Below the pieces are notes generated by a model, which saw nothing but the letters and a program-made list of their open reading frames with translations, was not told the DNA's origin and searched no databases. Positions 38,424 through 62,556 of a stretch of 64,000 bases of DNA are shown one piece after another. The position numbers and the translations under genes are program-made. The number at the start of each line of letters is the position of its first letter. Position 1 is the first letter of the stretch. Source of the DNA: an uncultured Verrucomicrobiae bacterium (GTDB lineage Bacteria > Verrucomicrobiota > Verrucomicrobiia > Chthoniobacterales > UBA10450); contig CAWFGO010000001.1 of assembly GCA_963815455.1 (NCBI GenBank), positions 736,001 through 800,000 of the forward strand, in the 5' to 3' direction.

Positions 38424-40211
38424 ATGGTCGCCGCCACTCGCACATTTCGGATTGAAGAAACTCTGCTCGAGCCGCAGGCCATTCCCCCGCCCCCGACTCG
38501 GCATGCGCTGTTTGTCATTTTGATCGCGCTGGCGGCGTTATTGCACGTGGCGACGATCGGCTCGGGCGATCTCTACAGCCAGACCGAGGGGCAATACGCC
38601 GGCGCTGCCAAAGAGATGGTTGAGACCCATCAATGGCTCCTGCCTACCAATGACGGAATTCCGCGCCTGCAAAAACCGCCCCTTCTCTACTGGCTCATCA
38701 TTATTTCCTTCAAGTTGTTTGGCGTAAACGCCGCCGCAGCGCGTCTGCCCGTTGCTCTCGCCGTGGTTGCCTCGGTTGCTCTTGTTTTCTTGATTGGCGA
38801 AAAATTGACGGATTACTGGCGCGGCTTTGTCGCGGGCCTGATCTATCTCAGTTTGTGTGGAACGTTCCTGCTGGCCCGCATCGTCATGCCGGAGCCGCTG
38901 GTCAGTGCATTCGTCGCCGGCGCGATTTTTTGCGGTATTTGTGGTTATCAGCGGCGGCAATATCGCCGCGTCTGGTTCGCCGGATTCTGGATTTGTGGCG
39001 CCCTGGCCTGCCTGACCAAAGGCGTCCTGGGATTCGTTTACCCGGCCGCGGTTTTTCTTGTGCTGGCAATTTTTTACCGCGAAGCGCGCATCCGGTTTCG
39101 CGGACTCCTCCGTTTGGAATATCTGTCGATCTTCCTCCTAATCGTCGCGCCCTGGCATATCTGGGCGGAACGGCATTTTCCAGGATACTTTCATTACATC
39201 ATCGGGCAGGAATGGATGGGGCATCTGCGCGGCGTTTCCGACGAAACGCGCGATTTCGCCGGCGTCCCGCCTTTGCAATTCCTGGCGCTGCATTTGGCCT
39301 GGTGGTTCCCGTGGTCGGTCGCGCTGTTGCCGGGCGTTGTTTTTGCCTGGCGCCGAATACTGCGGCCGCGTGAAATTGACTTCGGCGACGCGCTCCCGCT
39401 ATACTGGATGGCAGTGATTTTTGTGCCGTTGCTCTTTCTCGGCCAGCGCCAGGATTATTATTCGATGAGCATGTGGGGCGCGCTTGCGCTCTGGGCCGCC
39501 GTGGCGTGGGACCGGATGCCGGCCCGGTTCCGCGTTGCTGGAACAATCGCGGTCGGTCTCGTGGGAGTGGCCAGCGTTGCGCTCGCCTTATTCCTTCCAC
39601 ATGCCGCCAATACATTGAACGGACATTGGGGAATAATGGACAAACGCTGGACCGCATGGGCTGCCTTGCGCGACATGCCCGTTTCAACCTGGCTCTCGTT
39701 TCGCCCCATGCTTGCCATCACGGGCGCCTCACTTGTTTCCCTGTCTCTGGTGGCGCTCTATTTTAGGCAGCGCGAGAAACTGGCCGCCGTCGCCCTGGCC
39801 GTCGCGATGTTGCCCGGTGGACTCAGCATGATGGACGGCGTCGCCCGAATGGCGCCGTATTTTTCAATGGCCGAGATCGGCCGGTTCTTGAACCCGCGCC
39901 TGGAAGACAATGGCGAAGTGCTTTTCGAAGGTCTGCTAACTGACGGCAGCAGCCTCATTTTTTATCTCGATCAAAAGTTCTTTCTCGTAAATCAAAACCC
40001 GCGCAAGGAAAACCCGATCGGCAAACCGTCCACCGGCATTTTTCTCAAGGAAGAAGTCGTTTTGGAAAAATGGGGGTCGCCCGATGCCGTTTATCTAATC
40101 GTCGAGCAGGGGCGCGTCAGCTACTGGCAACAGCGAATAACCGAACGCTTTCACATTTTTCATCAGGTCACGACGTCGGGCACGTACGCCGTGCTCAGCA
40201 ATCAACTATAA
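38424..40211 (+). CDS. ArnT/PMT_2-family membrane glycosyltransferase
   Basis: [44 protein letters not shown], many TM helices. Confidence 0.88.
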
Positions 40212-47814: not shown

Positions 47815-48330
47815 CTATTGGACCCCGCTGCCTCTGCTTACTTGGGTGCGGACCGACGCTTTGAATTCGCTCAGACCGTTGACCGCTTCGCCTTGGTTGG
47901 TCAAAACAGATTCGCGACCGGCTTGATCGCGCCGAACGTGAAACCGGCCATACATGATCCCAACGAGCGGGATAAACTGGGTGCCGTTGTTCTGCACGAA
48001 AAGAATGTCTCTGTCGCCCACGGCAAACTTGGGCGCATCGGTCACGCCCATCGATTCATCGCCGACTGTCCCGCCGAGCATCCGGATCGTGTAGGATTGA
48101 CCGGGATTGCCTTTGAGGCTGTCGTCGATCCTAAAGGTGACGTAGCTGACGATATTGCGCTGTGCGCCTTCACCGACCCATTGCGACTTCACTGCGGTCA
48201 CTTCGCCTTGGAAAATGACGTCGGCTTGATTGACAAGCTCGTCGAACGTGGGCGGGATCACGGTGGTTGCTTGCGTTGCCGGGATAAAGGCAGCGACGGC
48301 GGCCAGGAAGAGGATAGAAGATTTTTTCAT
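47815..48330 (-). CDS. Secreted hypothetical protein, possibly TIMP/NTR-like or propeptide-like partner of the adjacent protease
   Basis: Signal peptide; TTVIPPTFDELVNQADVIFQGEVTAV, IDDSLKG, LGGTVG, PKFAVGDRDILF. Confidence 0.7.
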   Translation of the reverse strand: MKKSSILFLAAVAAFIPATQATTVIPPTFDELVNQADVIFQGEVTAVKSQWVGEGAQRNIVSYVTFRIDDSLKGNPGQSYTIRMLGGTVGDESMGVTDAPKFAVGDRDILFVQNNGTQFIPLVGIMYGRFHVRRDQAGRESVLTNQGEAVNGLSEFKASVRTQVSRGSGVQ

Positions 48331-48367
48331 GGAGTGATTTGGGACGTCAAAGATTTGAAATGATTAC

Positions 48368-49465
48368 TTATTTCTTAATGCTCACAGTGGCGTTGGTGGG
48401 AGATGAAACCCTATAGCCCGACCCGGACGAAAGGGTCATCTTGGCTGCCTTCGCCTTCTTGGCCACTTTTAGTACAGTCAGGACAACCTCGGTGGAACTG
48501 GCTCCGGCCGGAATAATCGCCTGGCCGTAAGTTCCGCTTAACGAATAAATTGTTCCCCGCTTGGCGCTGCCACTCATGGCGTATCGGACGGTAACCGAAT
48601 TATTCGGATCAATAACCGAAGCGGCGATCGTGTAGACTGCCGTGCCGCCCGCTCCCACTGTAGTCGGCGAAGCCGAGACGCTAACGACAGGGGTTGGATT
48701 TGGAGTGGCGGTCGGAGTCGGAGTCGGCGTTGGTGTCGGAGTCGGTGTTGGCGTTGGCGTGGGCGACGGCGTTGGCGTTGGCGTTGGCGTTGGTGACGGT
48801 GTTGGCGTTGGTGAAGGAGTCGGTGTGGGAGTTGGCGACGGCCCGGGTGCGCCATAAATGCTCTGGCCACCGTCGATGTCATCACTGGCAAGAGCATCGA
48901 GATTGCTCACGATCGAGTTCATGATCGCGCTAACGTGCTGGCCGCTTTGATCGGGATGTCCCAGGCCCAGGGCGTGCCCCGCCTCATGAAGCAAAACCCG
49001 CCGGATGTCAATTGCGGATCGGAGCGAGCCTCGGTAGGAATCGAAGCTCCTGTTTTGATTAAAAAGGATATCTGCCTCGATCATCCGAGAGCCCGAATAC
49101 CGGTAATAGGTCACCGCCAGGGTGTTCGCGCCAAAGCTTTGACCAAAAACGGTGTCCGAAAAAACGACCGAGTTGAGGCCATCGCCGGAAGAGGCAGTGG
49201 AGCCTCCACTTGCTGAGGCCAGCTGGATTCTCTCAACGTTCAAGTCCCAACTGGTAAGGGCGGGCTCGGCCGCGGTGTCCCATGAGGTATTGCCGTCAAT
49301 CAAAGTGCGACCGGCATTGCCGAGGCCCATTCGAAAAGTAACTGTGGTTCCCGAGTTCCAACTAGGTCCCTCCAGAACATAGGCGCGCAATCCTACGGGA
49401 AATGCAGCCAAAAACAGGGCGAGGGTGGTGCTGGCAAGAGTGGAAAATGCGAATTTGCGTCTCAT
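48368..49465 (-). CDS. Matrixin-like (M10) zinc metalloprotease with a Pro-Thr linker and a Calx-beta/Ig-like C-terminal domain
   Basis: Signal peptide; [18 protein letters not shown], Met-turn AIMNS, DDIDG, (PT/PS)n linker. Confidence 0.88.
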
Positions 49466-49634
49466 GGTTGGGAGAGAGAAAAGGGTTAGCACAGGGTAGA
49501 GGGAGCTGGTTTCTTTATAAAAACCATAAAGCACGATGCGTGCTCATTGGGTTTTCACCGGGCCTTTTTCTTCGAAAAAACCTTTCGGCGGCAACATCAG
49601 AGCACCTATGGCCGGCAATGGGCTTTCCAGTGAT

Positions 49635-50254: not shown

Positions 50255-51292
50255 TCATTTTCCCTGCAGCACCGCTACATCTTCAACGAAATCGGCAATC
50301 TCCTTGTCCGTCACCGCCCACGAACACATCAGGCGATAAATATCAGGCTCGATGAACTTGTAAAAATGCCATCCGCGTCCGCGAAGGCCGGCTACGAGAT
50401 GGTCGTTCATTCGCACAAAGGTGCCGTTCGCTTCCACCGGATAAGCGATGTCGATCTTCGCTTGCGTTTGGAGCTGTTCGGCGAGTGTTGCGGCGGCGCG
50501 ATTAGCGTGCCGGGCATGGCGCAGCCAAACGTCATCGGTCAGAATGCCGATCCATGGTGCGGCCAGAAAGCGCATCTTCGACCCGAGCTGCCCCCCTTGT
50601 TTGACCCGATAATCAAATTCACGCGCGAGATCCCTCTTGAAGAACACGACGAGTTCTCCCGCAGCCAGGCCGTTCTTGGTGCCGCCGAAGCAAAGGACAT
50701 CGACGCCTGCTTGCCAGGTTATTTCCTTCGGCGCACAACCAAGCGAGGCAACTGCGTTGGCGAAACGCGCGCCATCCATGTGAATGAAGAGCGAATGCTT
50801 CGCCGCAAGTTCTTTCAGCGCGCTCAGTTCCACAGCGGTATAAACCGTCCCAAGCTCGGTTGATTGGGTGATGCTTATTACGCGCGGTTTCGACGCATGA
50901 AGCTCGGGCTGCCGGGCAATCGCAGCGCCGGCGTCGTCAATGTCGATCTTCCCGTTCGCCCCGCGCGTCAGCAACAGCTTCGACCCGGAAAAGAATTCCG
51001 GCGCACCGCACTCGTCGGTTTCGATATGCGCTTTTTCATGACAAATGATGCTGTGAAACGGCTGGCAAAGCTGTGCCAAAGCCAGAGCGTTAGCCGCCGT
51101 GCCGTTGAAAACCAGGAAAGCCTCGCAATCCGTTTCGAAAATTTCTCGCACCCGTTCGCACAGTTGGTTCGTCCACCGATCGTCGCCATAGGATGGCGCG
51201 GAACCAGCGTTCGCTTTTTGGATCGCCTCCCAGGCTTCCGGGCAAAGTGGAGCGGTGTTATCGCTCTCAAATGGATGTCGATCCAGATTCAT
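50255..51292 (-). CDS. ltaE: Low-specificity L-threonine aldolase
   Basis: SDN, YGDD, NGTAAN, AHIETDECGAP, TELGTVY, HMDGARFANA, FGGTKNG (PLP Lys). Confidence 0.9.
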   Translation of the reverse strand: MNLDRHPFESDNTAPLCPEAWEAIQKANAGSAPSYGDDRWTNQLCERVREIFETDCEAFLVFNGTAANALALAQLCQPFHSIICHEKAHIETDECGAPEFFSGSKLLLTRGANGKIDIDDAGAAIARQPELHASKPRVISITQSTELGTVYTAVELSALKELAAKHSLFIHMDGARFANAVASLGCAPKEITWQAGVDVLCFGGTKNGLAAGELVVFFKRDLAREFDYRVKQGGQLGSKMRFLAAPWIGILTDDVWLRHARHANRAAATLAEQLQTQAKIDIAYPVEANGTFVRMNDHLVAGLRGRGWHFYKFIEPDIYRLMCSWAVTDKEIADFVEDVAVLQGK

Positions 51293-51553: not shown

Positions 51554-53575
51554 TCAATCCGCAAACGGCTGCGGCCCCCCCATTTCCAACAGGCGTGTAG
51601 CCTCCAGACGATGCTGATCAGCGAGGTCGGAACGGCCAATTCGCCCGTAAATGCGCGAAAGATAGCGATGCGCCAGTACGAAACCAGGCCGCATTCGCAG
51701 AGAGATTTCGAAGGCCTGAACCGCGCGTTCGAACCAACCGAGCCGGGAGAGCAACGCACCGAGTTGAAAGTGCGCCTCGGGAAATTCGTGGCGCAGTCCC
51801 ACCGCCAGTAACGCGTGATCGATTCCCTGCTCGACGAAACTTTGCCGTGGCAACGCCACGCTCAATCCGTAATGACCTTCGGCTGAATCAGGATCGACAT
51901 CCAACACGCGCTTGAATGCGCGTTCGGCCTCGGGCCACCGGCGTTGGCGCAGATAAAGCCGCCCGAGATATGTTTGCGTCACCGGATCGCCCGGCGCAAT
52001 GAGTTCCGCTTCGTGGAAAGCATCCGCGCAGGCTTCCATATCACCGCGCGTCCAGGCCATTACTCCCCGCAACACGTTCGTCTGCGGTGTGGCAGGCTCA
52101 AGGCGTTCCAGTGCCTCGAGCGCCGGTTTCGCGTCTTCCGGCGTCTGCGCGGCCAGGCAGGCCTGCGCGAACGCTCGCCAATAACGTGCCTCGTTCGGAT
52201 GTTTGGCCGTAAGCTTTGACAGGACCTCCTTGCCTTCGCGCGTCCGGCCCGCCTCGCACAAGCTCACTGCCACATTGAAATCGGCTTCCGCCTCCGCCAA
52301 CGCCACCATCCGATGCACATTATTGGCGGGATCGGCGATGTAGCCGAGGTCAACGAGTTGACGCAACGCGGCCTGCGCTGCCGCCGGATTTTCGTCTTCG
52401 ACCTTCGGTAACAGCCGACCATCTTCGCCCGCGACTTTTTCCCATGATGGAATTCGCTCGATATCCGGCGCCTGCTCAAAAGCGCTCACCAGCGGTTTGC
52501 CTTCCATGTCCTCGCCGATAGGCAATCCGAGCAACGTCAGCACCGTTGGCGCGATATCCAGCAGGGTCGCGCCCTCGATTCGTTCGTCCGCGCGAATCCC
52601 CGGGCCGTGCAGCACAAAAATTCCCTGGGGCCGATGCCACTTCGCCGGTTCGACGCGGCCTCGCGGACGCCGTGCCCCGCTTTCGAATCCGTGATCGGAC
52701 ACGATTAGAACATGCGCATTCGGTCCGGCCAGCTCGACCAGGCGTCCCAGCATTAGATCATGAAACCGGTAAATGCCGGTCATCACTTCGCGGTAAAATT
52801 CGAAGTCATGTTCCGGAATTTCGGGCAGACGCGGCGGATGAAACGGCATGAACTCATGGCCGACCTGGTCGATGCACTCGTAGTAGATCGCGCCGAAATC
52901 CCAGGCCTCGTTTTCCAGCAGCTCGGTGGCGACGGCATGCACCGTGATGACTTCAGCCAGTCGTTGGGCCAGGAATTCGAGCCGATGCCTGACCAGCGGG
53001 TCATTCTGATCAAGCTCCGGTGCGCGCGGAATCAATTGCTGAAGCGGCGGCGGCTCGATATCGCGCGGATGGACGCGCAGCTCCGCAAGATTTTCGGCGA
53101 GCGAGCTTGGCTCAACGCTTCCCGGAGGGATCGGCCAGGTGTCCGGCGTCGCGTCGGTTGGCGGAACGCTGAACAGGTTCGAGACCATTGCGCCACGCAC
53201 CGGTTCGGCCGGATGGCTCGCCTGCCACGCGCAAACGACGCTCCGGCGATCGGTTTGCGAAACAATGTTCCAGAGCGCCTTGCAACGCCGTGTCCGGGTG
53301 CCCACTGGGCGCACACCGGATCGGTCCGGCAAGGGCTCGATAAACCCGCGAATACCATGTGCGTAGGCGCGTTTCCCGGTTGCGATACTGGTCCATAGGA
53401 TTGGCGAAAGCATCGGCGACAGCGACGCCACGTTGCCGATCACACCACCTTCGACAAGGCACTGAAGATTCGGCATCAGCCCGGCATCGAGCAAAGGATG
53501 AATCACCTGCCAATCAGCCGCGTCCCAACCCACAAGCAACACGCGCGCTGGATTGTTGCGAACAGGCGAACTCAT
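51554..53575 (-). CDS. AlkP-superfamily (type I phosphodiesterase/nucleotide pyrophosphatase-like) protein with C-terminal TPRs
   Basis: VLLVGWDAADW, LSPILWTSIATG, IDQVGH, VSDHGF, HRPQGIF, LLDIAPTVL, LVDLGY, then multiple TPR repeats; no signal peptide. Confidence 0.88.
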   Translation of the reverse strand: MSSPVRNNPARVLLVGWDAADWQVIHPLLDAGLMPNLQCLVEGGVIGNVASLSPMLSPILWTSIATGKRAYAHGIRGFIEPLPDRSGVRPVGTRTRRCKALWNIVSQTDRRSVVCAWQASHPAEPVRGAMVSNLFSVPPTDATPDTWPIPPGSVEPSSLAENLAELRVHPRDIEPPPLQQLIPRAPELDQNDPLVRHRLEFLAQRLAEVITVHAVATELLENEAWDFGAIYYECIDQVGHEFMPFHPPRLPEIPEHDFEFYREVMTGIYRFHDLMLGRLVELAGPNAHVLIVSDHGFESGARRPRGRVEPAKWHRPQGIFVLHGPGIRADERIEGATLLDIAPTVLTLLGLPIGEDMEGKPLVSAFEQAPDIERIPSWEKVAGEDGRLLPKVEDENPAAAQAALRQLVDLGYIADPANNVHRMVALAEAEADFNVAVSLCEAGRTREGKEVLSKLTAKHPNEARYWRAFAQACLAAQTPEDAKPALEALERLEPATPQTNVLRGVMAWTRGDMEACADAFHEAELIAPGDPVTQTYLGRLYLRQRRWPEAERAFKRVLDVDPDSAEGHYGLSVALPRQSFVEQGIDHALLAVGLRHEFPEAHFQLGALLSRLGWFERAVQAFEISLRMRPGFVLAHRYLSRIYGRIGRSDLADQHRLEATRLLEMGGPQPFAD

Positions 53576-53650
53576 GACCTAAAGCTTCGGATTCTATCGG
53601 CCCTGGGCGACCCTCGCAAATTGCTCCTGCCAGTGCGGTTTTGTCGCGAC

Positions 53651-54340
53651 TCAATCCAACGGTTTTGATTTCCGCCCGCGCCAAATACGCACGCCGAGCG
53701 CGCCCACGGCCATGAGTGACAGAAGTGCTGTCGTCGAAGGTTCGGGAACAATTCCCGGGAATGGGCCGCCACTATCCTCGTAGGCGTACCACACGAGGGT
53801 CCGTGGTTGCGTCGCGTAACCGGAGGAGAGCGCAATGTTTGCGACGCCGAAGTTGTATTGCCCGGTGGATTCGTTGAGAAAACGAAAGCCGATATTATTT
53901 TGATCGCTGTTGAGAACAAAGGCTGTCGGCCCGGTTGTTTCGATGCCGCTCGTTCTACTATAAGTCCATGAACTGTCGATGATCGTGAAGTAGGGGAGAT
54001 TATCGACTAACGTGTTCGAAGTTCCTCCAGTGTAGTTTGAGAGGATGCCGTCATTTGGGCTGGCCGAATTGTTCGCCCAGATGTTCAGCCCGGTGCTGCT
54101 CCATGGATTGATGTCCCACCCCGGAACTGCTGCCGGTGTTATTGAGGTGACACCGGTGACGACATTAATGTAAACACCGGCAGTCGTGCTGGGGATATTG
54201 ATGTTGACGATGCCGCTGTAAATGATCGTTGCGTCCGCGTTGTGGATGGCAGCTGCGGTAAGAGCCGCGCCCGCGATTGTAGCGTATGCCGCGAGGTTGC
54301 GATCAAGACGTGAAGCTGGCTTCTGATTGCGTGGGCTCAT
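53651..54340 (-). CDS. PEP-CTERM surface protein A
   Basis: Long signal peptide (RNLAAYATIAGAALTAA..ADA); Ser/Thr-rich body; C-terminal VPEPSTTALL + TM + RIWRGRK. Confidence 0.93.
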   Translation of the reverse strand: MSPRNQKPASRLDRNLAAYATIAGAALTAAAIHNADATIIYSGIVNINIPSTTAGVYINVVTGVTSITPAAVPGWDINPWSSTGLNIWANNSASPNDGILSNYTGGTSNTLVDNLPYFTIIDSSWTYSRTSGIETTGPTAFVLNSDQNNIGFRFLNESTGQYNFGVANIALSSGYATQPRTLVWYAYEDSGGPFPGIVPEPSTTALLSLMAVGALGVRIWRGRKSKPLD

Positions 54341-54464
54341 TCGCGGCCTGATATGCCAAATTCAATAGGAAATTTCAATGATATTCGTTCAGTCGATCGT
54401 TCCGAGGGCCCGAATTTCTTGATCTCTGATGTCCCTCAGAGTGACCAATAGTGAAAGCACCCGT

Positions 54465-56654
54465 TCACTCGCCTGCCTGGCGAGGTTGATGGTATGGTTC
54501 GTGGCGGCGATAAAGTTCCAGGCGCTGTTCGATTTGCCGCGTAAGGGAAATATCATCCATTGCTCTCGCCTTTCCAAGGGCGCGACTCGCCGTCTCTAGT
54601 GCAGTTTGAAAATCTCGGAGCTCGGCATAAGCGGCCGCCAAGGTATCGAGCTGCTCGGCGTCCGGGTCGTTCGTTAGGCCACAGCTTTGTCTCGCCGTCG
54701 CCACAGCATCGGCGCCATCGCGCAATTTTTCATCAGCCGCGGTTGCCAGGAGCCAGGCCAGCTTGGTGCGCGAAACCGTATCGTCACTTTTCAATCTCGC
54801 TGCGTCTCGATAATGCGTGATCGCTTCGCCCCATTGCCGGGTTTTGCTCAGAATATTTGCCAGGCTCAAATGCGCGTCAGCATCATTAGGTCGTCTTTCT
54901 AGCACTTTGCGATAATGAGTAATCGCTTCGTCCAATCGGCCTCTTTGAACAAATATATCGGCAAGCAGTTTGTTCGCCTCCCACAAATCAGGCTTGATTT
55001 GAAGCGCATTCACAAGGTGAGGGATGGCCTGGTTTGGCTGCCCCGATTGCAGAAGCGCGTAGCCGAGGTTGAGGTGGGCTCCGGCCATGCCGGGATTTAT
55101 TTCGATGGCTTTTTGAAACTGGCTGATCGCTTCTGTGACCTGTCCATTTTGCGCGAGAACGGTTCCGAGATTGCTGCGCACCTGTGGAAGGTCTGGAACA
55201 AGATCCAGCGCCGTGTGATATTCCGCGATCGCCTCATTCAACCGGCCAACTCGAGAAAGCGCATTGCCAAGATTGTTATGCGCCTCCGCATATGCGGGCT
55301 GGATTTGTAACGCTCTCCCGTACTCAAAAATCGCTGCGTCAGGCTGACCTTTCTCGTCCAAGGCGAGGCCCAGATTAGTGTGGGCGACGAAATTGTTGGG
55401 GTCGATAGCCAGAGCATGATTCCACAGTTTTTCGCTGTCGTGCCAATAGGAAGCCTCGGCGCGAGTCAGGATTACGAGCCCGGCAATCACAATCGCGCCT
55501 GCCGTGGCGAGAATCTTCCGCCGCCACCGCCACCGAGCGAACAGGTCCGCGGCCCCCCAAATGATCATAATGTAGAGACCGATGTGAGGCAGATAGGTGT
55601 AGCGATCGGCGCGCGCGTAATAGGAAATTTGGACGATTCCGATGACCGGCAACATCATTCCCAAATACCAGAGCCAGCCAACGGCCAAATACGGATGCGT
55701 TTTCCAAACAATGAATACGCCGATTGAAATGGCGATGAGGAGCGCCATGCACAATCCAACCTCGAGAAGCGAGAATCCATTGGGCGGATTGAAATATGGA
55801 ATTGTTAGTCTCGACGGATAAAACATCTGCTCGAGATAAATCACGTAGGAAACCACCGTGTTCTCCAGCCGCGCCCAAAGCGATTCTCGAAAGGCAGGTC
55901 CAACTTTTTCCGGCGAGAGACTCGTGGCCAGGATCGACAATGCCGAAAGGGCGAATAACGGAATCTTCTCCATCAGTAGATGACTTCTGATTTCTGATCT
56001 CTGACCTCTGAATCTTCCCAGCGGCCAATAATCCAACAGCAAGAGGACAAACGGCAGCGTCACCAGCATGCCTTTGGACATCAATCCAAGTGCAAAAAGG
56101 AGCACGACCAGCAAATAGTCGAACACCGGAGGCTTTCCCCGGGCGTACCGCGCATATGCGACCAACGTGAGCATGAAGAAAACGCCACTCAGAACGTCTT
56201 TGCGCTCCGCGATCCAGGCCACCGACTCCACTCGCAGCGGATGGACAGCAAAGAGCGCCGCGACGAATCCACTCCGCCAAATGCTGCCAGTCATTTCGCG
56301 CAATGCCAGAAACAGGAGAATCACCGCGGCGGCATGAAGCGTAACGTTCGTTAAGTGATGGCCGCCGGCCCTGAGCCCAAAGAGTTGGCAATCCAGCATG
56401 TGAGACCACCACGTTACCGGATGCCAGTGACCAATTGCGGCAAATGTGAACGACCACGCAATTCCCTTGAGCGTCAGGCCGCGAAGAACACCCGAATTTT
56501 GATAAACGTACATGTCATCGTCGTAATTGATAAACTGATGCCGGATGGTCTGGCCAAAGCCCAGCCAAACGATCGCTGCCAGAGCTACGCAGATCGCTCC
56601 GACGACGCGACGGTCACGATGTGAGATTCGCGAAGCCTCAGTTTCCAGACCCAT
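54465..56654 (-). CDS. TMTC-like (GT-C) membrane glycosyltransferase with C-terminal TPRs, paralogue 1
   Basis: FINYDDDMYV, WHPVTW, HHLTNVTLH, LFAVHPLRVESVAWIAERKDVLS, ADRYTYLP, WHDSEKLW, then many TPRs. Confidence 0.85.
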   Translation of the reverse strand: MGLETEASRISHRDRRVVGAICVALAAIVWLGFGQTIRHQFINYDDDMYVYQNSGVLRGLTLKGIAWSFTFAAIGHWHPVTWWSHMLDCQLFGLRAGGHHLTNVTLHAAAVILLFLALREMTGSIWRSGFVAALFAVHPLRVESVAWIAERKDVLSGVFFMLTLVAYARYARGKPPVFDYLLVVLLFALGLMSKGMLVTLPFVLLLLDYWPLGRFRGQRSEIRSHLLMEKIPLFALSALSILATSLSPEKVGPAFRESLWARLENTVVSYVIYLEQMFYPSRLTIPYFNPPNGFSLLEVGLCMALLIAISIGVFIVWKTHPYLAVGWLWYLGMMLPVIGIVQISYYARADRYTYLPHIGLYIMIIWGAADLFARWRWRRKILATAGAIVIAGLVILTRAEASYWHDSEKLWNHALAIDPNNFVAHTNLGLALDEKGQPDAAIFEYGRALQIQPAYAEAHNNLGNALSRVGRLNEAIAEYHTALDLVPDLPQVRSNLGTVLAQNGQVTEAISQFQKAIEINPGMAGAHLNLGYALLQSGQPNQAIPHLVNALQIKPDLWEANKLLADIFVQRGRLDEAITHYRKVLERRPNDADAHLSLANILSKTRQWGEAITHYRDAARLKSDDTVSRTKLAWLLATAADEKLRDGADAVATARQSCGLTNDPDAEQLDTLAAAYAELRDFQTALETASRALGKARAMDDISLTRQIEQRLELYRRHEPYHQPRQAGE
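55983..56010 (-). repeat. Heptamer repeat (CAGARRT)4 inside TMTC-like paralogue 1
   Basis: Minus strand CAGAGGT CAGAGAT CAGAAAT CAGAAGT; encodes RGQRSEIRS. Confidence 0.8.
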
Positions 56655-58599
56655 TCGTTTTCTTCGTCTCGATTTCCCTCAGCGCTCCGCGGGCCGGCGC
56701 GTAATCCGGCGCAATTTGAAGCACTCCTTGCAATTCCTGGATCGCTTGATCGACATCGCCGCGGCCAGCCAGGGCCCGGGCGAGATTCGTGCGCGCGAGG
56801 ACGCGCTGCGGTTCAGCTCGCGTGATTGGCGCCAACTGGTCTATCGCTTCATCGTTCCGGCCAAGCGCTACCAGAGCGAAGCCATAATTGATGTGCGCCA
56901 GGGTGTTGTCCGGATCGAGTTGAACCGCCCGCTTCAGCTGTTTCGCGGCGTCCTCGTACCGATTATTGATGAGAGCGATGGAACCGACGCTGTTGAACGC
57001 GGTCGACGAATTCGGATTTAGATAGATTGATTTTTCCAGCTCAGTTAGGGCCTCGGCATAGCGCCCCTGCTTCAACAAGACATTCCCGATATTTGCGTAG
57101 ATCCGCCCATAACGCGGTGATTCCTGGACCGCCTCCCGATACTGAGCGAGCGCGCCATCAAGGTTTCCTTCCACCTCCAGAACGCTTCCGAGATTTTGAT
57201 GGGCAATGAAGTTACCTCGCGTGACCTTCAGGGCGTGAGTGAACAAAGACCTGCTGTTTTGCCAGTAGGAAACCTGAACCCACGTGACGCTGGTAAGAAC
57301 CGCCAGCCACGCACAGACCGCGGTGACGACAGCGGATTTTCCCAGCCGCGAAACCCCGGCCGGAAGGCTCCACGCGACCATAACAAAAACCCCGATTGAC
57401 GGAATATAAGTGTATCGATCGGCAATCGAATGCATCCCAACCTGAACCAAACCGATCACTGGAACCAATGTGCCGAGAAACCAGAGCCAGCCGATTAGCA
57501 GCCACGGACGACGACGGCGACAAACCACTGCGATAGCAGTGATGATCGACAAAATCGCGACGCTGACGATGACATCGGTAAGGCGCCAGTGACCAGGGTG
57601 CGGATAAAAAACGGCCAGGTTCACCGGAGCGATAAGCTTGTCCAAATACATGCGGTATCCGACAAGCGCGCTCGCTGCGCGCGTCCAAATCGGCGAAGCC
57701 GCCAGGCCGACGACGGAGCCAGCGCTGCGTTGAGAGACAATCGCGATTACGCTGAATATCGCCGCGATTAACAACAACGGAATTTTCTCGAGAATAACGC
57801 GCGACCGGGGAAGTGCGCGCGACGCCTCCGTCTCTACTACTGGAGGCGTCGCCTCGGCCGCTATTGCCGGCGCGCCGGGGTCGAGCGCAAAAGGCTTCCA
57901 TCGACATAGGGGCCAGATATCGATCAGCAATAGGAGAAACGGAAATGTGACCCACATTGGCTTCGCCAGAAGAGAGAGAACAAACAGGCATGGTGTTACT
58001 AGATATTTTCTGACCGAAGGCTGGCGCGTGTATGCGACGTAGGCGCCGAGCGCGAGCAAACCGAAAAAGCTGCTGAGCACGTCCTTGCGTTCTGCCACCC
58101 ACGCGACCGATTCGACGTGCAACGGATGTATCGCAAAAAGGGCCGCCACTAACGCACTGCCCCAAATGCTGCTGGTCCGGTCCGCCACTTGGACGGATTC
58201 GGCCCGCGGCGAACTCGGACCATCGGTCATTCGGCAAAAAATTAGAAACAACAACAGCGTATTGACGCCATGCAAGAGCACGCTGGTGAGATGATGGCCG
58301 CCAGCCCAGCCATCCCACATCGTCACGTCGAGCATGTGCGAGAGCCACGTCAGCGGATGCCAGTTACCGCTCTTTAATGTGGTGAAGGCCCAGACGATTC
58401 CCTTCCAGTTCAGCCCATGCAAAACATGCGGGTTTTCCGTGACGTAAAGGTTGTCGTCGTAATTAATAAAATCGTGACGAAGCGCCTGCAGGTAGGGAAG
58501 AACCGCCAGCGCGAAGAGGAGCGCTCCTATCATTGCGGTAACGCGTGAGGCATGCCCTTTGGCAGTTGCATTCATGTTGCGATCAGCTTTCACCGCCAT
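56638..58599 (-). CDS. TMTC-like membrane glycosyltransferase with C-terminal TPRs, paralogue 2
   Basis: FINYDDNLYV, NWHPLTWLSHMLD, LFAIHPLHVESVAWVAERKDVLS, ADRYTYIP, WQNSRSLF, TPRs; overlaps paralogue 1 by 17 nt. Confidence 0.85.
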   Translation of the reverse strand: MAVKADRNMNATAKGHASRVTAMIGALLFALAVLPYLQALRHDFINYDDNLYVTENPHVLHGLNWKGIVWAFTTLKSGNWHPLTWLSHMLDVTMWDGWAGGHHLTSVLLHGVNTLLLFLIFCRMTDGPSSPRAESVQVADRTSSIWGSALVAALFAIHPLHVESVAWVAERKDVLSSFFGLLALGAYVAYTRQPSVRKYLVTPCLFVLSLLAKPMWVTFPFLLLLIDIWPLCRWKPFALDPGAPAIAAEATPPVVETEASRALPRSRVILEKIPLLLIAAIFSVIAIVSQRSAGSVVGLAASPIWTRAASALVGYRMYLDKLIAPVNLAVFYPHPGHWRLTDVIVSVAILSIITAIAVVCRRRRPWLLIGWLWFLGTLVPVIGLVQVGMHSIADRYTYIPSIGVFVMVAWSLPAGVSRLGKSAVVTAVCAWLAVLTSVTWVQVSYWQNSRSLFTHALKVTRGNFIAHQNLGSVLEVEGNLDGALAQYREAVQESPRYGRIYANIGNVLLKQGRYAEALTELEKSIYLNPNSSTAFNSVGSIALINNRYEDAAKQLKRAVQLDPDNTLAHINYGFALVALGRNDEAIDQLAPITRAEPQRVLARTNLARALAGRGDVDQAIQELQGVLQIAPDYAPARGALREIETKKTNGSGN

Positions 58600-58662
58600 T
58601 CACGCCCGCAAAAAATATTGCGCAAGCCTAATACCTTGCGCTCCATCAAAAAACTTGCGCTG

Positions 58663-58702
58663 AAAAACAAAAAGCCCGCGCGAAACTTAATTCGCGCGGG
58701 CT
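58663..58702 (-). terminator. Rho-independent terminator of PEP-CTERM gene B
   Basis: AGCCCGCGCGAA-6 nt-TTCGCGCGGGCT, a 12-bp stem followed by a minus-strand T-tract. Confidence 0.85.
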
Positions 58703-58726
58703 CTTGGAGAAATATGCTGCCCGTGA

Positions 58727-59407
58727 TTACGCTTTGCGCTTGCGCCAGGTCCGCACACCTAAAGCGCCAGCCGCCATCACTCCTAACAGAGCGAAGGTTG
58801 ACGGCTCTGGAACCTGGCCGGCCATAATCGAATTGCCCATGTTATCGTAGGCGTACTCGACAAGTAACCGAGGCTGCCCTGAACTGGTTGCGGCTAACGA
58901 AAATCTGGCCCATCCAAAGTTGTAGGTGCTTGTCCCCTCGTTGAGGAAACGGAAGCCAACCACATTGTTACTGCTGCTGAGGTTGAAGGCAGTCGCGCCA
59001 GTTGTTTCGATTGATGAAGTCCTGCCATAGCTCCATGAGGCGTCAATCACGGTTCCCAACGGAATGTTGTCGACTAGAGTAGCGGAAGTTCCTCCCGTGA
59101 AGTTCTGAAGCACCCCATCATTCACGCTGGCCGAATTGTTTGCCCAAACGTTAAATGACGCGCTCCCCCAAGGATTGAGATCCCAGCCGGGAGCACCAGC
59201 TGGCGTGGTCGAGGTCACGCCGGTTACGAAATTGATATAAATGCCAGAAGTCGTGCTCGGAACCGTAAAGTTCACAACGCCGCTCCAAACGATATCGGCA
59301 TCGGCGTTCGGTATTGCAGGCGCGGCCAGCGCAGCACCAGCAACCGCTGCGTACGCTGCCAGACGACCATCAACACGTGGACTAAGTTTAAGATTTCTCG
59401 GGCTCAT
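58727..59407 (-). CDS. PEP-CTERM surface protein B (paralogue of A)
   Basis: ATG 59407 with AAGGA upstream; MSPRNLK..RLAAYAAVAGAALAA..ADA; aligns colinearly with A; VPEPSTFALL + TM + RTWRKRKA. Confidence 0.93.
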   Translation of the reverse strand: MSPRNLKLSPRVDGRLAAYAAVAGAALAAPAIPNADADIVWSGVVNFTVPSTTSGIYINFVTGVTSTTPAGAPGWDLNPWGSASFNVWANNSASVNDGVLQNFTGGTSATLVDNIPLGTVIDASWSYGRTSSIETTGATAFNLSSSNNVVGFRFLNEGTSTYNFGWARFSLAATSSGQPRLLVEYAYDNMGNSIMAGQVPEPSTFALLGVMAAGALGVRTWRKRKA

Positions 59408-59453
59408 AATGTTTTTCCTTTGCGAGGTATGCGGTCTGTTTTGATCAATTTGT

Positions 59454-59475
59454 GCAAAAAGGTCAAGCTTTTTCG
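59454..59475 (-). promoter_or_regulatory. Conserved palindromic upstream element of PEP-CTERM gene B
   Basis: Sense strand CGAAAAAGCTTGACCTTTTTGC; 21/22 identical to 60342-60363. Confidence 0.7.
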
Positions 59476-59558
59476 AGTAATTCCGGCAGTGAATTGGGGC
59501 CTTCCATCGACGGCAACCGAACGTCGCACTGGCTCTGATTCTACACAGTTCGATTTGG

Positions 59559-59599
59559 AAACAGAAAGCCCGCGCGAAACTCAATCGGCGCGGGCTTTC
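59559..59599 (-). terminator. Rho-independent terminator of PEP-CTERM gene C
   Basis: GAAAGCCCGCGC ... GCGCGGGCTTTC stem; nearly the same sequence as the terminator at 58663-58702. Confidence 0.8.
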
Positions 59600-59625
59600 G
59601 AGAAAATCGTTCGTTTAAGTTAGTC

Positions 59626-60291
59626 TTATGCTGCTTTGCGTTTGCGCCAGGCGCGCAAACCAAGACCCGCCGCGCCCAAACCTAGCAGGGCCAACGTGGT
59701 CGGTTCCGGCACGATCGAGATGACACCGGGACCGCTGATGCCGAAGTAGTAATCGCCAGTGGCTTGACCGGCCGAGGTGGTGGAGACGAATGTTGTGTCG
59801 CGAAAGCCCGACGTATACAGGAAGTATTGGGTGCCCGCGGTCAGAGCGACGTTGAGCAACCGCGAACCCGGTTGAGCGCCGGTGAACCCAGTGGAAGTCG
59901 CTGTGAGTCCCATGCCAGAGTAGGGGCCTGGAAGGACCGTCAGGGTGCCGGTGAAGTCGTCGCTCGAGAATAGGGGCGCGCCCAGCGCTGGCGGAGTGAA
60001 CGTGTTGGCAAATACCGCCAGCCATGTATCCAACGCGTTGCTCGGCGTTCCAACCGAGTTGATCGAAGCAAGCTCGAAGGTATAGCTCCCGCTCGTACCA
60101 ACAGTGAATGCGTAGACATTGTAATACTGCAGGCTGGTTCCCGCCGTGCTCTGGCCCGTAGCGTGAGCTGTCGGTGACGCCGCAGTGAGAGTGCCATTAC
60201 CGAATACTATGTCGGCGTAGGACACGCTCGAAAGGGCAAAGATGCAGACGACCGACGCTGCGAGGAGTTTAAATGATTTAGTAAGTTTCAT
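59626..60291 (-). CDS. PEP-CTERM surface protein C (different extracellular domain)
   Basis: Signal peptide MKLTKSFKLLAASVVCIFALSSVSYA; Thr/Ser/Gly-rich body; VPEPTTLALL + TM + RAWRKRKAA. Confidence 0.93.
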   Translation of the reverse strand: MKLTKSFKLLAASVVCIFALSSVSYADIVFGNGTLTAASPTAHATGQSTAGTSLQYYNVYAFTVGTSGSYTFELASINSVGTPSNALDTWLAVFANTFTPPALGAPLFSSDDFTGTLTVLPGPYSGMGLTATSTGFTGAQPGSRLLNVALTAGTQYFLYTSGFRDTTFVSTTSAGQATGDYYFGISGPGVISIVPEPTTLALLGLGAAGLGLRAWRKRKAA

Positions 60292-60341
60292 AAGCAGGAT
60301 CTCCGGTTTTCGTTGTAGAAGTAACTTGTACCCGGTCATGC

Positions 60342-60363
60342 GCAAAAAGATCAAGCTTTTTCG
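60342..60363 (-). promoter_or_regulatory. Conserved palindromic upstream element of PEP-CTERM gene C
   Basis: Sense strand CGAAAAAGCTTGATCTTTTTGC. Confidence 0.7.
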
Positions 60364-60537
60364 GTGTCCTAAAAGACTCTTTTGGCCGCCCCCCCTGGCG
60401 CTGAGCTACAAGGTCTCTGGGGTAACTCCGCAATTTCTCGGATACTCTTTCTCCTTGCTTGCCTCGGTGCGAAGACTGGTGGGATCGCCATCTTTTTTTT
60501 CCCTGCAGTGATTTGCGGTCGCTGCTAGAGACTGTAG

Positions 60538-62556
60538 GTGGCCGAATATTCTGAGGCAAACAAAGGGGTGGATGACCGATCGTCGGTCGGCGGCGTTTGT
60601 TTTTTTCTGGCGGCCCTCGTCTGGCTGGCTTTCGGCCAAACGATTCGGCACGCGTTCGTCAATTATGATGACGACGTTTATGTTTATCAAAATCCGTACG
60701 TTCTGGCGGGACTGACGCGCCGGGGAATTGGGTGGGCCTTTGCCTATGGCAGGATCGGTCATTGGCATCCGCTAACCTGGTTTTCACACATGCTGGATTG
60801 CCAGCTCTGGGACCTTCGGGCGGGCGGGCATCATCTGACCAACGTGCTCCTGCACGCCGCCGCTGCGATCCTTCTCTTCCTGGCCTTAAAGCAAATGACG
60901 AGTGGTCCGGGCCGGACTGGCAGTATTTGGCGGAGCGCAGTCGTGGCCACGATCTTCGCGATTCATCCGCAGCGGGTGGAATCGGTCGCCTGGATCGCGG
61001 AGCGCAAAGATGTGCTGAGCGGCGCTTTCTTCATGCTCACGATCCTCGCCTACGTGAGATACGTGCGAAAGGCGCCGTCCGTGGCTGGATATGCGCCGGT
61101 GGCGATTCTATTCGCGCTCGGGCTCATGTCGAAGGGGGTGCTGGTGACGTTGCCATTTGTGCTCCTGCTCCTCGACTACTGGCCATTGCGACGAATAACA
61201 CCGGAAATCCTCCCAGCGATTCGACGGCCCGAAAACCGCGCAAAGGTTTGGTGCTTGCTCCGGGAAAAGATTCCGCTCTTTCTCCTCTCAGCCGCGTCTT
61301 GCCTGATGACCAGTCTGTCGCCGGAGCGGATTGCGCCGGCCCTGCAAATGTCGCTTCGAGCGCGGGTCGAAAACGTCATCGTTTCCGATGTCATTTACAT
61401 AAAGCAAATGCTCTACCCGGTGGGTCTGGAACTGCCCTACTTCAATCCGCCGGGCGGCTTCCCGCTTTGGCAGGTCGGCGGGGCGCTCGCACTTCTGCTC
61501 GCCGTCTCGATCGGCGTGTTTGTCTTTCGGAAAACGCATCCTTACCTGATCGTGGGCTGGCTCTGGTATCTGGGAATGATGGCGCCGGTCATTGGACTGG
61601 TGCAAATCTCCTACTACGTGCGCGCTGATCGCTACACCTATTTGCCGCACATCGGTCTCTACATCATGGCAATTTGGGGCGGCGCGGCGTTGTTAGGGCG
61701 CGTCCGCGCGGGCCGCTACATCCTCGGGGGCGTTGCTTTGCTCCTGATCGCGGCGCTCCTCTCGCGCACTCGGGCGCAGACCTCCTATTGGAATGACAGC
61801 GCGACGCTCTGGACGCACGTCTTGCAGGTGAACCCGGAGAACCACGTTGCTCATAGCAATCTGGGCCTTGTCCTGGCCGAGAACGGCCAAATCGAAAGCG
61901 CTATCACGCATTTTGAAAAGGCCCTGGAGATTCAACCGCTGTATGCCGATGCCTACAACAACATGGGCACCGCGCTTTCGCGTACCGGGCGGACACGCGA
62001 GGCGATTGCCCAATACCGGAAGGCGCTCGCTCTCGATGCGGAGCACCCGCAAATGCAGAACAATCTCGGGATCGCGCTCGCCCAAAACGGGCAGGTGAGC
62101 GAGGCGCTGCCGCACTTCCGCAAAGCGATCGAGCTCAAGCCCGATTTCGCCGCAGCCTACAGCAATTTCGGACACGCCCTTTCGCTCCAGGGACGAATCG
62201 ATGAAGCGCTGCCCCAGTTTTTGAAAGCGCTTGAGATAACGCCCAACTCCATCCTGGCGCACAAAGAGGTCGCCGTGGCATTGCTAAGAATTGGGCAACC
62301 CTCCGAAGCGGTTACCCATTATCGCAAGGTTCTCGAACTCGGGGGCGATGCGGCCGACGTGCGTTTCAATCTGGCCGCCGCCTACGCCGAGATCGGAGAT
62401 TTCGATGCTGCGTTCGAGACGGCGACTCGCGCACTGGAACAAGCGAGAGCGAACGGAGACGACCGGCTCGCCCGGCAAATCGAAGAACGCCTCGATCTTT
62501 ATCGGCAACATCAACCCAACCGGCAGACCCTGCCAAAGGATTCCGGTAATCGTTAA
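60538..62556 (+). CDS. TMTC-like membrane glycosyltransferase with C-terminal TPRs, paralogue 3
   Basis: FVNYDDDVYV, GHWHPLTW, IFAIHPQRVESVAWIAERKDVLS, ADRYTYLP, WNDSATLW, TPRs; closest to paralogue 1. Confidence 0.85.
   Translation: MAEYSEANKGVDDRSSVGGVCFFLAALVWLAFGQTIRHAFVNYDDDVYVYQNPYVLAGLTRRGIGWAFAYGRIGHWHPLTWFSHMLDCQLWDLRAGGHHLTNVLLHAAAAILLFLALKQMTSGPGRTGSIWRSAVVATIFAIHPQRVESVAWIAERKDVLSGAFFMLTILAYVRYVRKAPSVAGYAPVAILFALGLMSKGVLVTLPFVLLLLDYWPLRRITPEILPAIRRPENRAKVWCLLREKIPLFLLSAASCLMTSLSPERIAPALQMSLRARVENVIVSDVIYIKQMLYPVGLELPYFNPPGGFPLWQVGGALALLLAVSIGVFVFRKTHPYLIVGWLWYLGMMAPVIGLVQISYYVRADRYTYLPHIGLYIMAIWGGAALLGRVRAGRYILGGVALLLIAALLSRTRAQTSYWNDSATLWTHVLQVNPENHVAHSNLGLVLAENGQIESAITHFEKALEIQPLYADAYNNMGTALSRTGRTREAIAQYRKALALDAEHPQMQNNLGIALAQNGQVSEALPHFRKAIELKPDFAAAYSNFGHALSLQGRIDEALPQFLKALEITPNSILAHKEVAVALLRIGQPSEAVTHYRKVLELGGDAADVRFNLAAAYAEIGDFDAAFETATRALEQARANGDDRLARQIEERLDLYRQHQPNRQTLPKDSGNR

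Follow-up and report, generated by a model that had tools for sequence, protein, structure and literature searches.

The window analysed here is a stretch of 64,000 nucleotides from an uncultured Verrucomicrobiae bacterium (contig CAWFGO010000001.1, positions 736,001 to 800,000 of the forward strand), and the system under study is a block of seven genes at its positions 51554 to 62556, which encode a phosphodiesterase-family enzyme with tetratricopeptide repeats (TPRs), here called AlkP-TPR, three proteins with PEP-CTERM tails (PEP-A, PEP-B and PEP-C), and three membrane proteins that resemble the TMTC glycosyltransferases of eukaryotes (TMTC-1, TMTC-2 and TMTC-3). The conserved core of this block is the pair of a PEP-A/B gene and the AlkP-TPR gene, which adjoin each other and co-occur with a sulfotransferase gene in several phyla; the TMTC-like genes are optional additions. 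We propose, as a reading with an even chance of being correct, that the block carries out a two-stage tailoring of surface proteins, in which a leader-guided modification in the cytoplasm would be followed, in some lineages, by O-glycosylation in the periplasm. An earlier note on this DNA had described the block as a module for O-glycosylation, with the PEP-CTERM proteins selected by the TPRs of the TMTC-like proteins, and this description is partly supported. The gene block itself was delimited correctly, all seven open reading frames (ORFs) between ltaE and a putA-type ORF being open and intact at the following coordinates:

51554..53575, minus strand: AlkP-TPR, 673 aa; NPP/phosphodiesterase-family domain (residues ~12-400) and TPRs; PF01663 E 3.7e-24
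53651..54340, minus strand: PEP-A, 229 aa; 37-aa Ala/Gly-rich leader with RLxxY, ~160-aa beta domain, PEP-CTERM tail
54465..56654, minus strand: TMTC-1, 729 aa; predicted GT-C domain and TPRs; member of a TMTC-1/3 clade in the tree
56638..58599, minus strand: TMTC-2, 653 aa; GT-C domain predicted by homology to TMTC-1, and TPRs
58727..59407, minus strand: PEP-B, 226 aa; PEP-A paralogue whose leader is of the same type; all-beta AlphaFold2 (AF2) model
59626..60291, minus strand: PEP-C, ~221 aa; PF07589 E 7e-8; ordinary signal peptide; divergent partner of TMTC-3
60538..62556, plus strand: TMTC-3, 672 aa; GT-C domain predicted by homology, and TPRs

The starts of PEP-B (59407) and PEP-C (60291, placed by inspection) are probably the correct ones, instead of the longest-ORF starts. 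It should be noted that many genes of the assembly (3.6 Mb, 90% complete) look frameshift-split, e.g., those at window positions 2761-3014 and 32191-33344 and at C2:578391-579665; none of the seven genes is among them.

The association of the core pair was analyzed in 78 AlkP-TPR loci, obtained from the best 80 of 324 stretches and coming from records titled Verrucomicrobiota, Betaproteobacteria, Planctomycetota and Bacteroidota; 70 of these loci have at least 1.5 kb of upstream DNA. Of the 70, 60 carry a PEP-A/B-domain gene upstream of the enzyme gene and on its strand (immediately upstream in 52); the count is 53/63 once the seven loci that seeded the profile are left out. Among the ten loci with no upstream match, L153 and L156 have diverged PEP-CTERM genes upstream with a similar leader, and L106 has a family member with a type IX secretion system (T9SS) tail downstream of the enzyme gene. 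In the window, the stop codon of PEP-A and the start of AlkP-TPR are 75 nt apart. AlkP-TPR had previously been taken as a passenger of the block, an assumption that these counts contradict. A TMTC gene was found within 5 kb in 8/70 loci, and none is nearby in the other 62. The betaproteobacterial core (records titled Roseateles and Rubrivivax) consists of the PEP gene, AlkP-TPR and sulfotransferase only; no TMTC-like match was found in any of five betaproteobacterial genomes that carry the core, and only weak ones in two of five other genomes.

The same association is found at the level of whole genomes. Among 201 genomes of the family, including the host genome and G008 (the latter positive for all three genes), AlkP-TPR is present in 64 and the PEP-A/B domain in 60, with both in 55 and neither in 132, so that the domain occurs in 55/64 genomes with AlkP-TPR versus 5/137 without it. 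The sulfotransferase is present in 65 genomes, in 60 of them together with AlkP-TPR, and neither is found in 132; this overlap is partly the result of gene fusion. Of the nine genomes that scored for the enzyme only, six were inspected, and each of them has a leader-bearing gene of PEP/VPDSG type beside the enzyme gene. The five genomes that scored for the substrate only include one with a broken enzyme (G257), two with broken or partial substrates (G004, G310) and one with the gene at a contig end (G217). A reverse scan of metagenomes yielded 16 loci, most of them too short for a verdict, with AlkP following in four and TMTC in one.

The copy number of the two partners varies. Four loci (L231-L234) are tandem arrays of three to four units, each comprising a PEP-CTERM gene and an AlkP-TPR gene, with the units of differing subtypes; these arrays also contain sulfotransferases and a ~230-aa protein with no Pfam match. 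In some other genomes, a single enzyme match is accompanied by 10-18 substrate matches; in L238 (G244:C6:218000-233000), at least six PEP-A/B-family genes surround one AlkP-TPR-sulfotransferase fusion, and the genome has 18 matches. Pairwise identities of substrates and enzymes are correlated in a mirror-tree comparison (Spearman 0.7-0.85), a result in which co-evolution and block duplication are not separable.

The leader of the precursors tracks the enzyme. An extended leader is present in 25/25 aligned precursors encoded next to AlkP-TPR and in 0/8 precursors from genomes that lack the enzyme. The former leaders are 25-40 aa long (mean 36 aa), with 55% Ala+Gly in the last 20 residues and the motif (R/K/Q/N)(L/W/I/V)xx(Y/C), whereas the latter eight precursors have ordinary signal peptides, mostly of 22 aa (mean 23.5 aa), with 19% Ala+Gly; large hydrophobic residues make up 18% of the extended leader versus 43% of the ordinary signal peptides. 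The extended leaders end in AxA and are maintained with tails of four kinds (PEP-CTERM, VPDSG, dockerin and T9SS). L241 and L242 also retain such a leader, even though the profile no longer matches the mature domain there. The leader-bearing PEP/VPDSG-type proteins of these two loci are accompanied by AlkP-TPR, GT2s and an RmlC-like epimerase, a gene set that suggests a variant with glycosylation in the cytoplasm. In L086, a 33-codon ORF ~190 nt upstream of AlkP-TPR consists of the leader alone, and may be either a PEP-A remnant or a functional leader peptide; a stand-alone micro-peptide gene was not found in the gaps of the window. The combination of conserved leader, variable core and co-inheritance with an enzyme, which is typical of ribosomally synthesized and post-translationally modified peptides (RiPPs), is thus present here, as judged with a small, kin-dependent set of negatives.

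The enzyme matches PF01663 with 86 bits (cut-off 23). AlkP-TPR is likely to be cytoplasmic, because it has no signal peptide, transmembrane (TM) or other hydrophobic segment and its catalytic domain begins at about residue 12. Residues D18, S57, D236, H240, D294, H295 and H314 are invariant in 25 homologues, and we take them to be the metal ligands and the nucleophile, in line with the roles of such residues in this superfamily. The partner sulfotransferase (~190 aa, with a Sulfotransfer_3/1 match) keeps a PRSGTS loop, which presumably binds 3'-phosphoadenosine-5'-phosphosulfate (PAPS), and an adenosine-5'-phosphosulfate (APS) kinase is present elsewhere in the host genome. The sulfotransferase is either fused to AlkP-TPR, or adjacent to it, or, in the host genome, located beside a second AlkP-TPR copy that is 59% identical to that of the window:

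C1:108322-111866, host genome: second core copy, with a PEP-A/B-family gene, AlkP-TPR, a stand-alone sulfotransferase and a ~110-aa ORF; no TMTC gene

Halogenase-like genes directly follow AlkP-TPR in 10/66 loci, and none is beside the window's copy. In L007:11306-14911, L087:8100-11731 and L091:8138-13170, one to three tandem halogenase-like genes of ~595 aa (motif WIWFIP) are located directly 3' of AlkP-TPR; the nearest match of these FAD enzymes is CmlS, followed by QhpG and LodB, all under the cut-off. Further recurring but variable neighbors of the core are GNATs, GT2s, GT-C genes and an RmlC-like epimerase. A complex prediction for AlkP-TPR (673 aa) and PEP-A residues 1-196, i.e., without the tail, scored 0.01 in both runs (controls not folded) and counts neither for nor against a complex.

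Representing the proposed pathway as "cytoplasm-export-periplasm", we suggest the following steps. In the cytoplasm, the TPRs of AlkP-TPR would bind the precursor through its Ala/Gly-rich RLxx(Y/C) leader, in the fashion of RiPP enzymes, and the sulfotransferase may move sulfate from PAPS either to Ser/Thr/Tyr of the protein or to a glycan bound for the protein. For the AlkP domain, whose metal site is intact and whose nucleophile is Ser, the likeliest role is to relay or edit the sulfo or phospho group; its exact reaction is the weakest step of the scheme. Sulfation is the most likely modification to result from these two enzymes together. The precursor would then be exported by Sec, with cleavage of the leader at AxA and processing of the PEP-CTERM tail by exosortase, as is established for this protein family. 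On the periplasmic side, TMTC-2, TMTC-1 and TMTC-3 may put sugar on Ser/Thr of PEP-A/B and PEP-C, using a polyprenyl-phosphate donor that a DPM1-like GT2 would make. In other lineages, the same slots could be filled by halogenase-like, GNAT or GT2 enzymes. In the widest form of this proposal, at least four phyla would run a RiPP-style line on full-size surface proteins, in which AlkP-TPR reads the leader, the sulfotransferase and swappable partners decorate the precursor before export, and a dedicated TMTC clade O-glycosylates it outside; we offer this form tentatively, its chances being well below even.

The putative substrates are two paralogues, PEP-A and PEP-B (64% identical), and PEP-C, which is unrelated to both. 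All three score over the cut-off of TIGR02595 (PEP-A, 20.7 bits; cut-off 16) and have the attributes of PEP-CTERM/exosortase cargo: VPEP followed by a TM helix and a basic tail, a signal recognized by eye, and an exosortase encoded in the genome. The exosortase (five matches at four places of the host genome) and GT2 enzymes that could supply lipid-linked sugar (27 matches in the host genome, two of them adjoining other TMTC-like genes) are encoded outside the window, in agreement with the prediction that these functions act in trans. By pattern, 26 PEP/VPDSG tails were counted in the host genome (27 found, one rejected). The mature domains had been described as about one quarter Ser+Thr without Lys or Cys; the frequencies of Ser+Thr are 23.1, 24.2 and 27.6%, and both Lys and Cys are absent. 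This Ser+Thr content is not special to the three, as 17 of 25 PEP/VPDSG-CTERM proteins measured in the host genome have at least 20% Ser+Thr (the proteome mean is 11%). Ser/Thr richness was rejected as a mark of dedicated substrates, being common among these proteins of the host genome.

The mature PEP-A/B domain (~155-160 aa) represents a family without a name that comprises 4442 clusters at 50% identity, with no Pfam family, no PDB sequence match and no Foldseek match at E<=0.001; the matching clusters in Atlas are all labelled "hypothetical protein". The AF2 model of PEP-B is all-beta (pLDDT 97), and its seven best VIA matches belong to the HmuY family or DUF4466, with middling Z values (Z 5.9-8.2; root-mean-square deviation (rmsd) 2.8-4.2). 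The closest folds are PDB 3h8t, 8b6a and 4ei0 (Z 7.6-8.2, rmsd 2.8-4.0, 117-132 residues aligned); identities are 6-18%, mature PEP-B has no His, and the likeness is one of resemblance only. No cadherin or Ig entry is among the 50 VIA rows listed for this model; within that list, the predicted fold of PEP-B is HmuY-like and not cadherin-like in its top matches.

HmuY proteins bind ligands, and the cytoplasmic enzymes might make a small molecule, lipid or lipid-linked glycan bearing sulfate or another decoration, for which PEP-A/B would serve as surface carriers or binders, and the GT-C proteins would extend the glycan or pass it to other acceptors in the envelope. The fold of PEP-B is consistent with this reading, and so is the presence, in 10/66 loci, of halogenase-like neighbors closest to CmlS, a small-molecule halogenase; Agl30 and Agl31, discussed below, likewise act on a glycan, probably while it is lipid-linked (PMC11980604). 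However, neither the tracking of the enzyme by the leader, while mature domains and anchors vary, nor the one-to-one ratio of enzyme to substrate genes in tandem arrays is explained by carriers of this kind. The lack of His in mature PEP-B and the middling Z values also count against it, and the protein-modifying QhpG and LodB, second and third among the matches, are in the same group of FAD enzymes. We consider this possibility unlikely.

The second stage of the proposed tailoring depends on the TMTC-like proteins. An AF2 model of TMTC-1 residues 1-410 (105-row alignment, pLDDT 88.6) matches Pmt2 (VIA Z 18.8, rmsd 4.6, 336 aligned), AglB (Z 18.8), STT3 (Z 18.2) and ArnT (Z 16.2); the top 20 VIA rows are all of GT-C fold (Z 18.8 to 9.1), the row after them having a Z of 6.1, and Foldseek recovers PglB and Pmt at E 1e-4. 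The three membrane proteins are thus predicted GT-C glycosyltransferases, TMTC-1 according to its model and TMTC-2 and TMTC-3 by homology, which agrees with the fold and the TM+TPR layout suggested previously. Sequence searches with the TM domain gave nothing useful in PDB or Pfam, where PMT_2 scores it weakly (E 1.4e-4, under the cut-off). The motifs NYDD, HP..VESVAW.AERKD and ADRY.Y.P, noticed before, are present in all three proteins. In the alignment, D45 is found in 104/105 rows and D46 in 103/105, and the acidic motif follows the first helix of the model; altogether, DD, ERKD (RxD), K194 (M4 Lys) and DRxxY are kept in 103-105 of 105 rows. These motifs were compared with Table 4 of PMC7801869 by order and position, without alignment to the human sequences. 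TMTC-3 had been called divergent, which is true of its orientation and not of its sequence: TMTC-1 and TMTC-3 are 66% identical in the TM domain, whereas TMTC-2, ~40% identical to both, is the outlier.

The TMTC-like family is large (at least 8000 database matches, 14 matches in the host genome), and the linkage of its members to PEP-CTERM genes depends on the clade. We compared 40 TMTC loci, a subset of those matched in relatives, to 20 control windows, hand-picked at round coordinates in 7 genomes. A PEP/VPDSG tail was found within 2 kb in 5/40 loci and anywhere in the locus sequence in 8/40, versus 1/20 controls (Fisher p=0.25, not significant). The permutation analysis that had been proposed was carried out in the host genome, where 2/9 TMTC loci are near a PEP gene (p=0.10, not significant; 1/8 and p=0.36 without the present locus). 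The commonest neighbor is a GT2, often DPM1-like, within ~2.5 kb (12/40 loci versus 1/20 controls); others are further GT-Cs, TonB receptors, haemagglutinin-like proteins and pilin-like genes. G009 has 16 TMTC matches and no TIGR02595 match, but it is weak evidence on the separation of TMTC from PEP genes, because one VPDSG-type tail was found there by pattern.

For the clades present in the window, the linkage is much tighter. In a quick tree of 84 domains, all seven rows of the TMTC-2 clade come from operons with PEP-A/B and AlkP-TPR, four of them having been found through AlkP-TPR loci. A TMTC-2 search in 200 genomes of the family returned 12 non-self rows (9 clearly TMTC-2-like, 1 ambiguous, 2 of another clade). 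A PEP-A/B gene adjoins seven of the nine clear orthologues; of the remaining two, one has AlkP-TPR and the other a different PEP-CTERM gene within ~3 kb. Among seven TMTC-1/3-like rows, a divergent PEP-C orthologue is present in three, AlkP-TPR within ~7 kb in four, and neither in one; the PEP-C orthologues beside TMTC-3 orthologues (L215, L216, L218) are 54-92% identical. All 12 genomes with TMTC-2 or TMTC-1/3-like clades carry the PEP-A/B and AlkP-TPR core. Some members of these clades may have been missed, because only 8 candidates per genome were scored. The linkage of TMTC to PEP-CTERM genes claimed by the earlier note is thus not supported for TMTC-like genes in general and is supported for the clades of this block, including the divergent TMTC-3/PEP-C pair.

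Other TMTC-like genes have surroundings of their own. At C3:481790-488080 of the host genome, three of them surround a DPM1-like GT2 (485584-486312) that may produce the lipid-linked donor, and members of the same GT2 family flank TMTC genes in many relatives. At C1:1445935-1449067 of the host genome and in L055 and L056, TMTC-like genes are located directly 3' of type IV pilin-like genes (FTLVEIM, by eye); as judged from gene order, this recurrence in three genomes is a candidate pilin glycosylation pairing. At C1:1119471-1132811 (host genome) and in L044 and L047, they are downstream of proteins of 2000-3700 aa, of which those in L044 and L047 match DUF3739 and are filamentous-haemagglutinin-like.

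If O-glycosylation were central, with the TPRs of the TMTC-like proteins choosing the co-encoded PEP-CTERM proteins and AlkP-TPR secondary, one could point to the GT-C fold, the position of TMTC-2 beside PEP-A/B (7/9) and of TMTC-3 beside PEP-C (3/7), a DPM1-like GT2 within the operon of L006, and the Ser/Thr-rich substrates. Against this, a TMTC gene is near the core in 8/70 loci and was not matched in the five betaproteobacterial genomes with the core, and TMTC loci overall are not significantly PEP-adjacent, flanking pilin-like, haemagglutinin-like, TonB and GT-C genes as well. That O-glycosylation organises the block is not supported, because the TMTC family is large and rarely PEP-adjacent and the core usually lacks a TMTC gene nearby; the module as first described is distinctly improbable.

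Another reading holds that AlkP-TPR is a dedicated export chaperone or editor for a weak Ala-rich signal, either holding the precursor or removing phosphate or 3'-phosphoadenosine-5'-phosphate (PAP) and leaving no lasting mark. The leader is indeed poor in large hydrophobic residues, the arrays are one-to-one, and substrate and enzyme identities track each other, which shared descent predicts too; however, the catalytic residues are invariant, and a sulfotransferase is fused or co-present in 60/64 genomes, so that we regard a chaperone or editor role as very unlikely. Chance gathering of TMTC-like genes at a surface-gene hotspot, with no action on these PEP-CTERM proteins, is compatible with the 14 paralogue matches of the host genome, the common TMTC arrays, the non-significant permutation and the variability of the putA-ltaE block in relatives, but is hardly credible given that the TMTC-2 clade is an operon member at differing sites of the chromosome across several genera (L006, L009, L089, L098, L114) and, one borderline case aside, is found only in core-bearing genomes.

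Returning to the two-stage tailoring, several observations weigh against it. The window's AlkP-TPR copy has no adjoining sulfotransferase, and a sulfotransferase is within 4 kb of AlkP-TPR in just 24/66 loci. The leader comparison has 8 negatives, which represent 4 genomes and of which 6 belong to a single genus; its motif was derived from the positive set; negatives in 8 further genomes were left out, the start being unplaceable or the domain match weak; and G217, already mentioned for its gene at a contig end, has a leader-bearing gene there and no enzyme match. In a sample of the phylum, the PEP-A/B domain is present in 17/151 genomes and AlkP-TPR in 5/151, with 4 shared, so that 13/17 domain-positive genomes have no AlkP-TPR match at E<=1e-40. 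The Fisher p-values overstate the significance, because kin genomes are not independent. The TMTC-2 clade has an SH-aLRT value of 92, which comes from the quick tree alone, and two of three TMTC-2-like copies in G237 have no adjoining PEP-A/B gene. Finally, neither M4 Glu nor M5 DW, the metal ligands proposed for human TMTC, is recognizable in the window's proteins (K194 is followed by N/G/P), and DUF1736 (PF08409) has no match on the TMTC-like genes of the window. These proteins appear TMTC-like in build, i.e., a GT-C domain and then TPRs, yet they lack part of what defines TMTC/GT105.

The remaining features of the block and its flanks are as follows:

50255-51292: ltaE, flanking gene; Beta_elim_lyase match
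58670..58705, minus strand: intrinsic-terminator-like hairpin after PEP-B, family D5; 82% identical copy at 59559-59607, after PEP-C
59451..59475, minus strand: 25-nt promoter-like element with TTGAC/TTGAT core upstream of PEP-B, family D6
from ~62637: putA-type ORF on the TMTC-3 side

The name putA for the last ORF is that given by the earlier note. The D6 element has a 92% identical copy at 60339-60363, upstream of PEP-C, and a similar sequence upstream of some orthologues; the counts of promoter-like and terminator-like elements are not above those in shuffled sequence. TMTC-1 and TMTC-2 overlap by 17 nt (start of the former, stop of the latter), AlkP-TPR and ltaE are 261 nt apart, and the interval from ltaE to putA varies among relatives. 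Beyond ltaE, the minus strand at 47815-49534 encodes a matrixin-like protease (48368-49534), which is secreted and contains a long Pro-Thr linker, together with a secreted partner of 171 aa; the pair is kept beside ltaE in relatives, and the linker is a possible O-glycosylation target. A further GT-C protein (38424-40211, plus strand; PMT_2 E 8e-17) adjoins a lipid A acyltransferase-GT9 fusion at 36018-37958, and the host genome has 17 PMT_2 matches over the cut-off.

If correct, the proposed tailoring would assign a role to a large family of surface-protein domains that has no name (4442 clusters) and to a widespread unnamed enzyme, and anchored surface proteins would join peptides as targets of leader-directed modification. 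In its widest form, it would also mean that the substrate of a bacterial TMTC enzyme is encoded by an adjacent gene. TMTC-2/PEP-B and TMTC-3/PEP-C recur as candidate pairs of enzyme and substrate and could serve as models of the human TMTC enzymes, and the betaproteobacterial PEP gene, AlkP-TPR and sulfotransferase form a three-gene minimal system. The compact gene set makes it testable whether and how PEP-CTERM proteins are modified, and what bacterial TMTC homologues do. The carriers here are probably relatives of soil Chthoniobacterales.

The enzymes of the block are all members of known superfamilies. Their combination did not turn up in searches of open-access full texts (without supplements), which gave no paper that pairs TMTC with PEP-CTERM, no account of this module, and nothing related to the block under PEP-CTERM and sulfotransferase. 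The neighborhoods of sulfotransferase, halogenase and dioxygenase with other secreted proteins in PMC2938197 are, in the portion cited, a different set. Several close TMTC-like matches are annotated by JGI as "protein O-mannosyl-transferase", and full-length prokaryotic TMTC homologues are mentioned as uncharacterised in PMC7801869. The window proteins share with eukaryotic TMTC1-4 (GT105) the GT-C domain with C-terminal TPRs, DD in loop EL1, RxD in loop EL2, the M4 Lys and (E/D)RxxY of M7 (PMC7801869); they differ in the missing DUF1736 match, M4 Glu and M5 DW, in being bacterial with 10-14 paralogues in the host genome, and in candidate substrates whose top fold matches resemble HmuY and not cadherins. 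With the PEP-CTERM/exosortase system they have in common the sorting tail, exosortases in trans and multi-copy cargo, whereas the partners described in the cited part of PMC1569441 are PrsT (a TPR lipoprotein), PrsK and PrsR and exopolysaccharide (EPS) genes, and not AlkP-TPR, sulfotransferase or TMTC-like genes. No TPR protein of the window reaches the cut-off of TIGR02917.

RaxST of Xanthomonas acts in the cytoplasm and depends on PAPS. Its substrate RaxX, a tyrosine-sulfated, leader-bearing, secreted RiPP, resembles the present case in that a sulfotransferase is encoded with a leader-bearing secreted protein substrate, and differs in being a 60-aa peptide, with cleavage at Gly-Gly and export through a peptidase-ABC transporter (10.1101/442517). 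The block, in contrast, has folded surface proteins of ~220 aa, Sec-type AxA leaders, C-terminal anchors and AlkP-TPR as the constant partner, and no peptidase-ABC exporter is among the families that recur in at least 3 of the 78 AlkP-TPR loci. Agl30 and Agl31 of Halobacterium salinarum are AlkP-superfamily proteins, one of them cytosolic, that are needed for sulfation of surface-glycoprotein glycans; they are sulfatase-like and act on an N-glycan, and the cited part of PMC11980604 reports neither TPRs nor a classical sulfotransferase with them. AlkP-TPR of the window is NPP-like (PF01663) with a Ser nucleophile. RaxST/RaxX and Agl30/31 are the nearest working analogues of the block, which is a member of neither.

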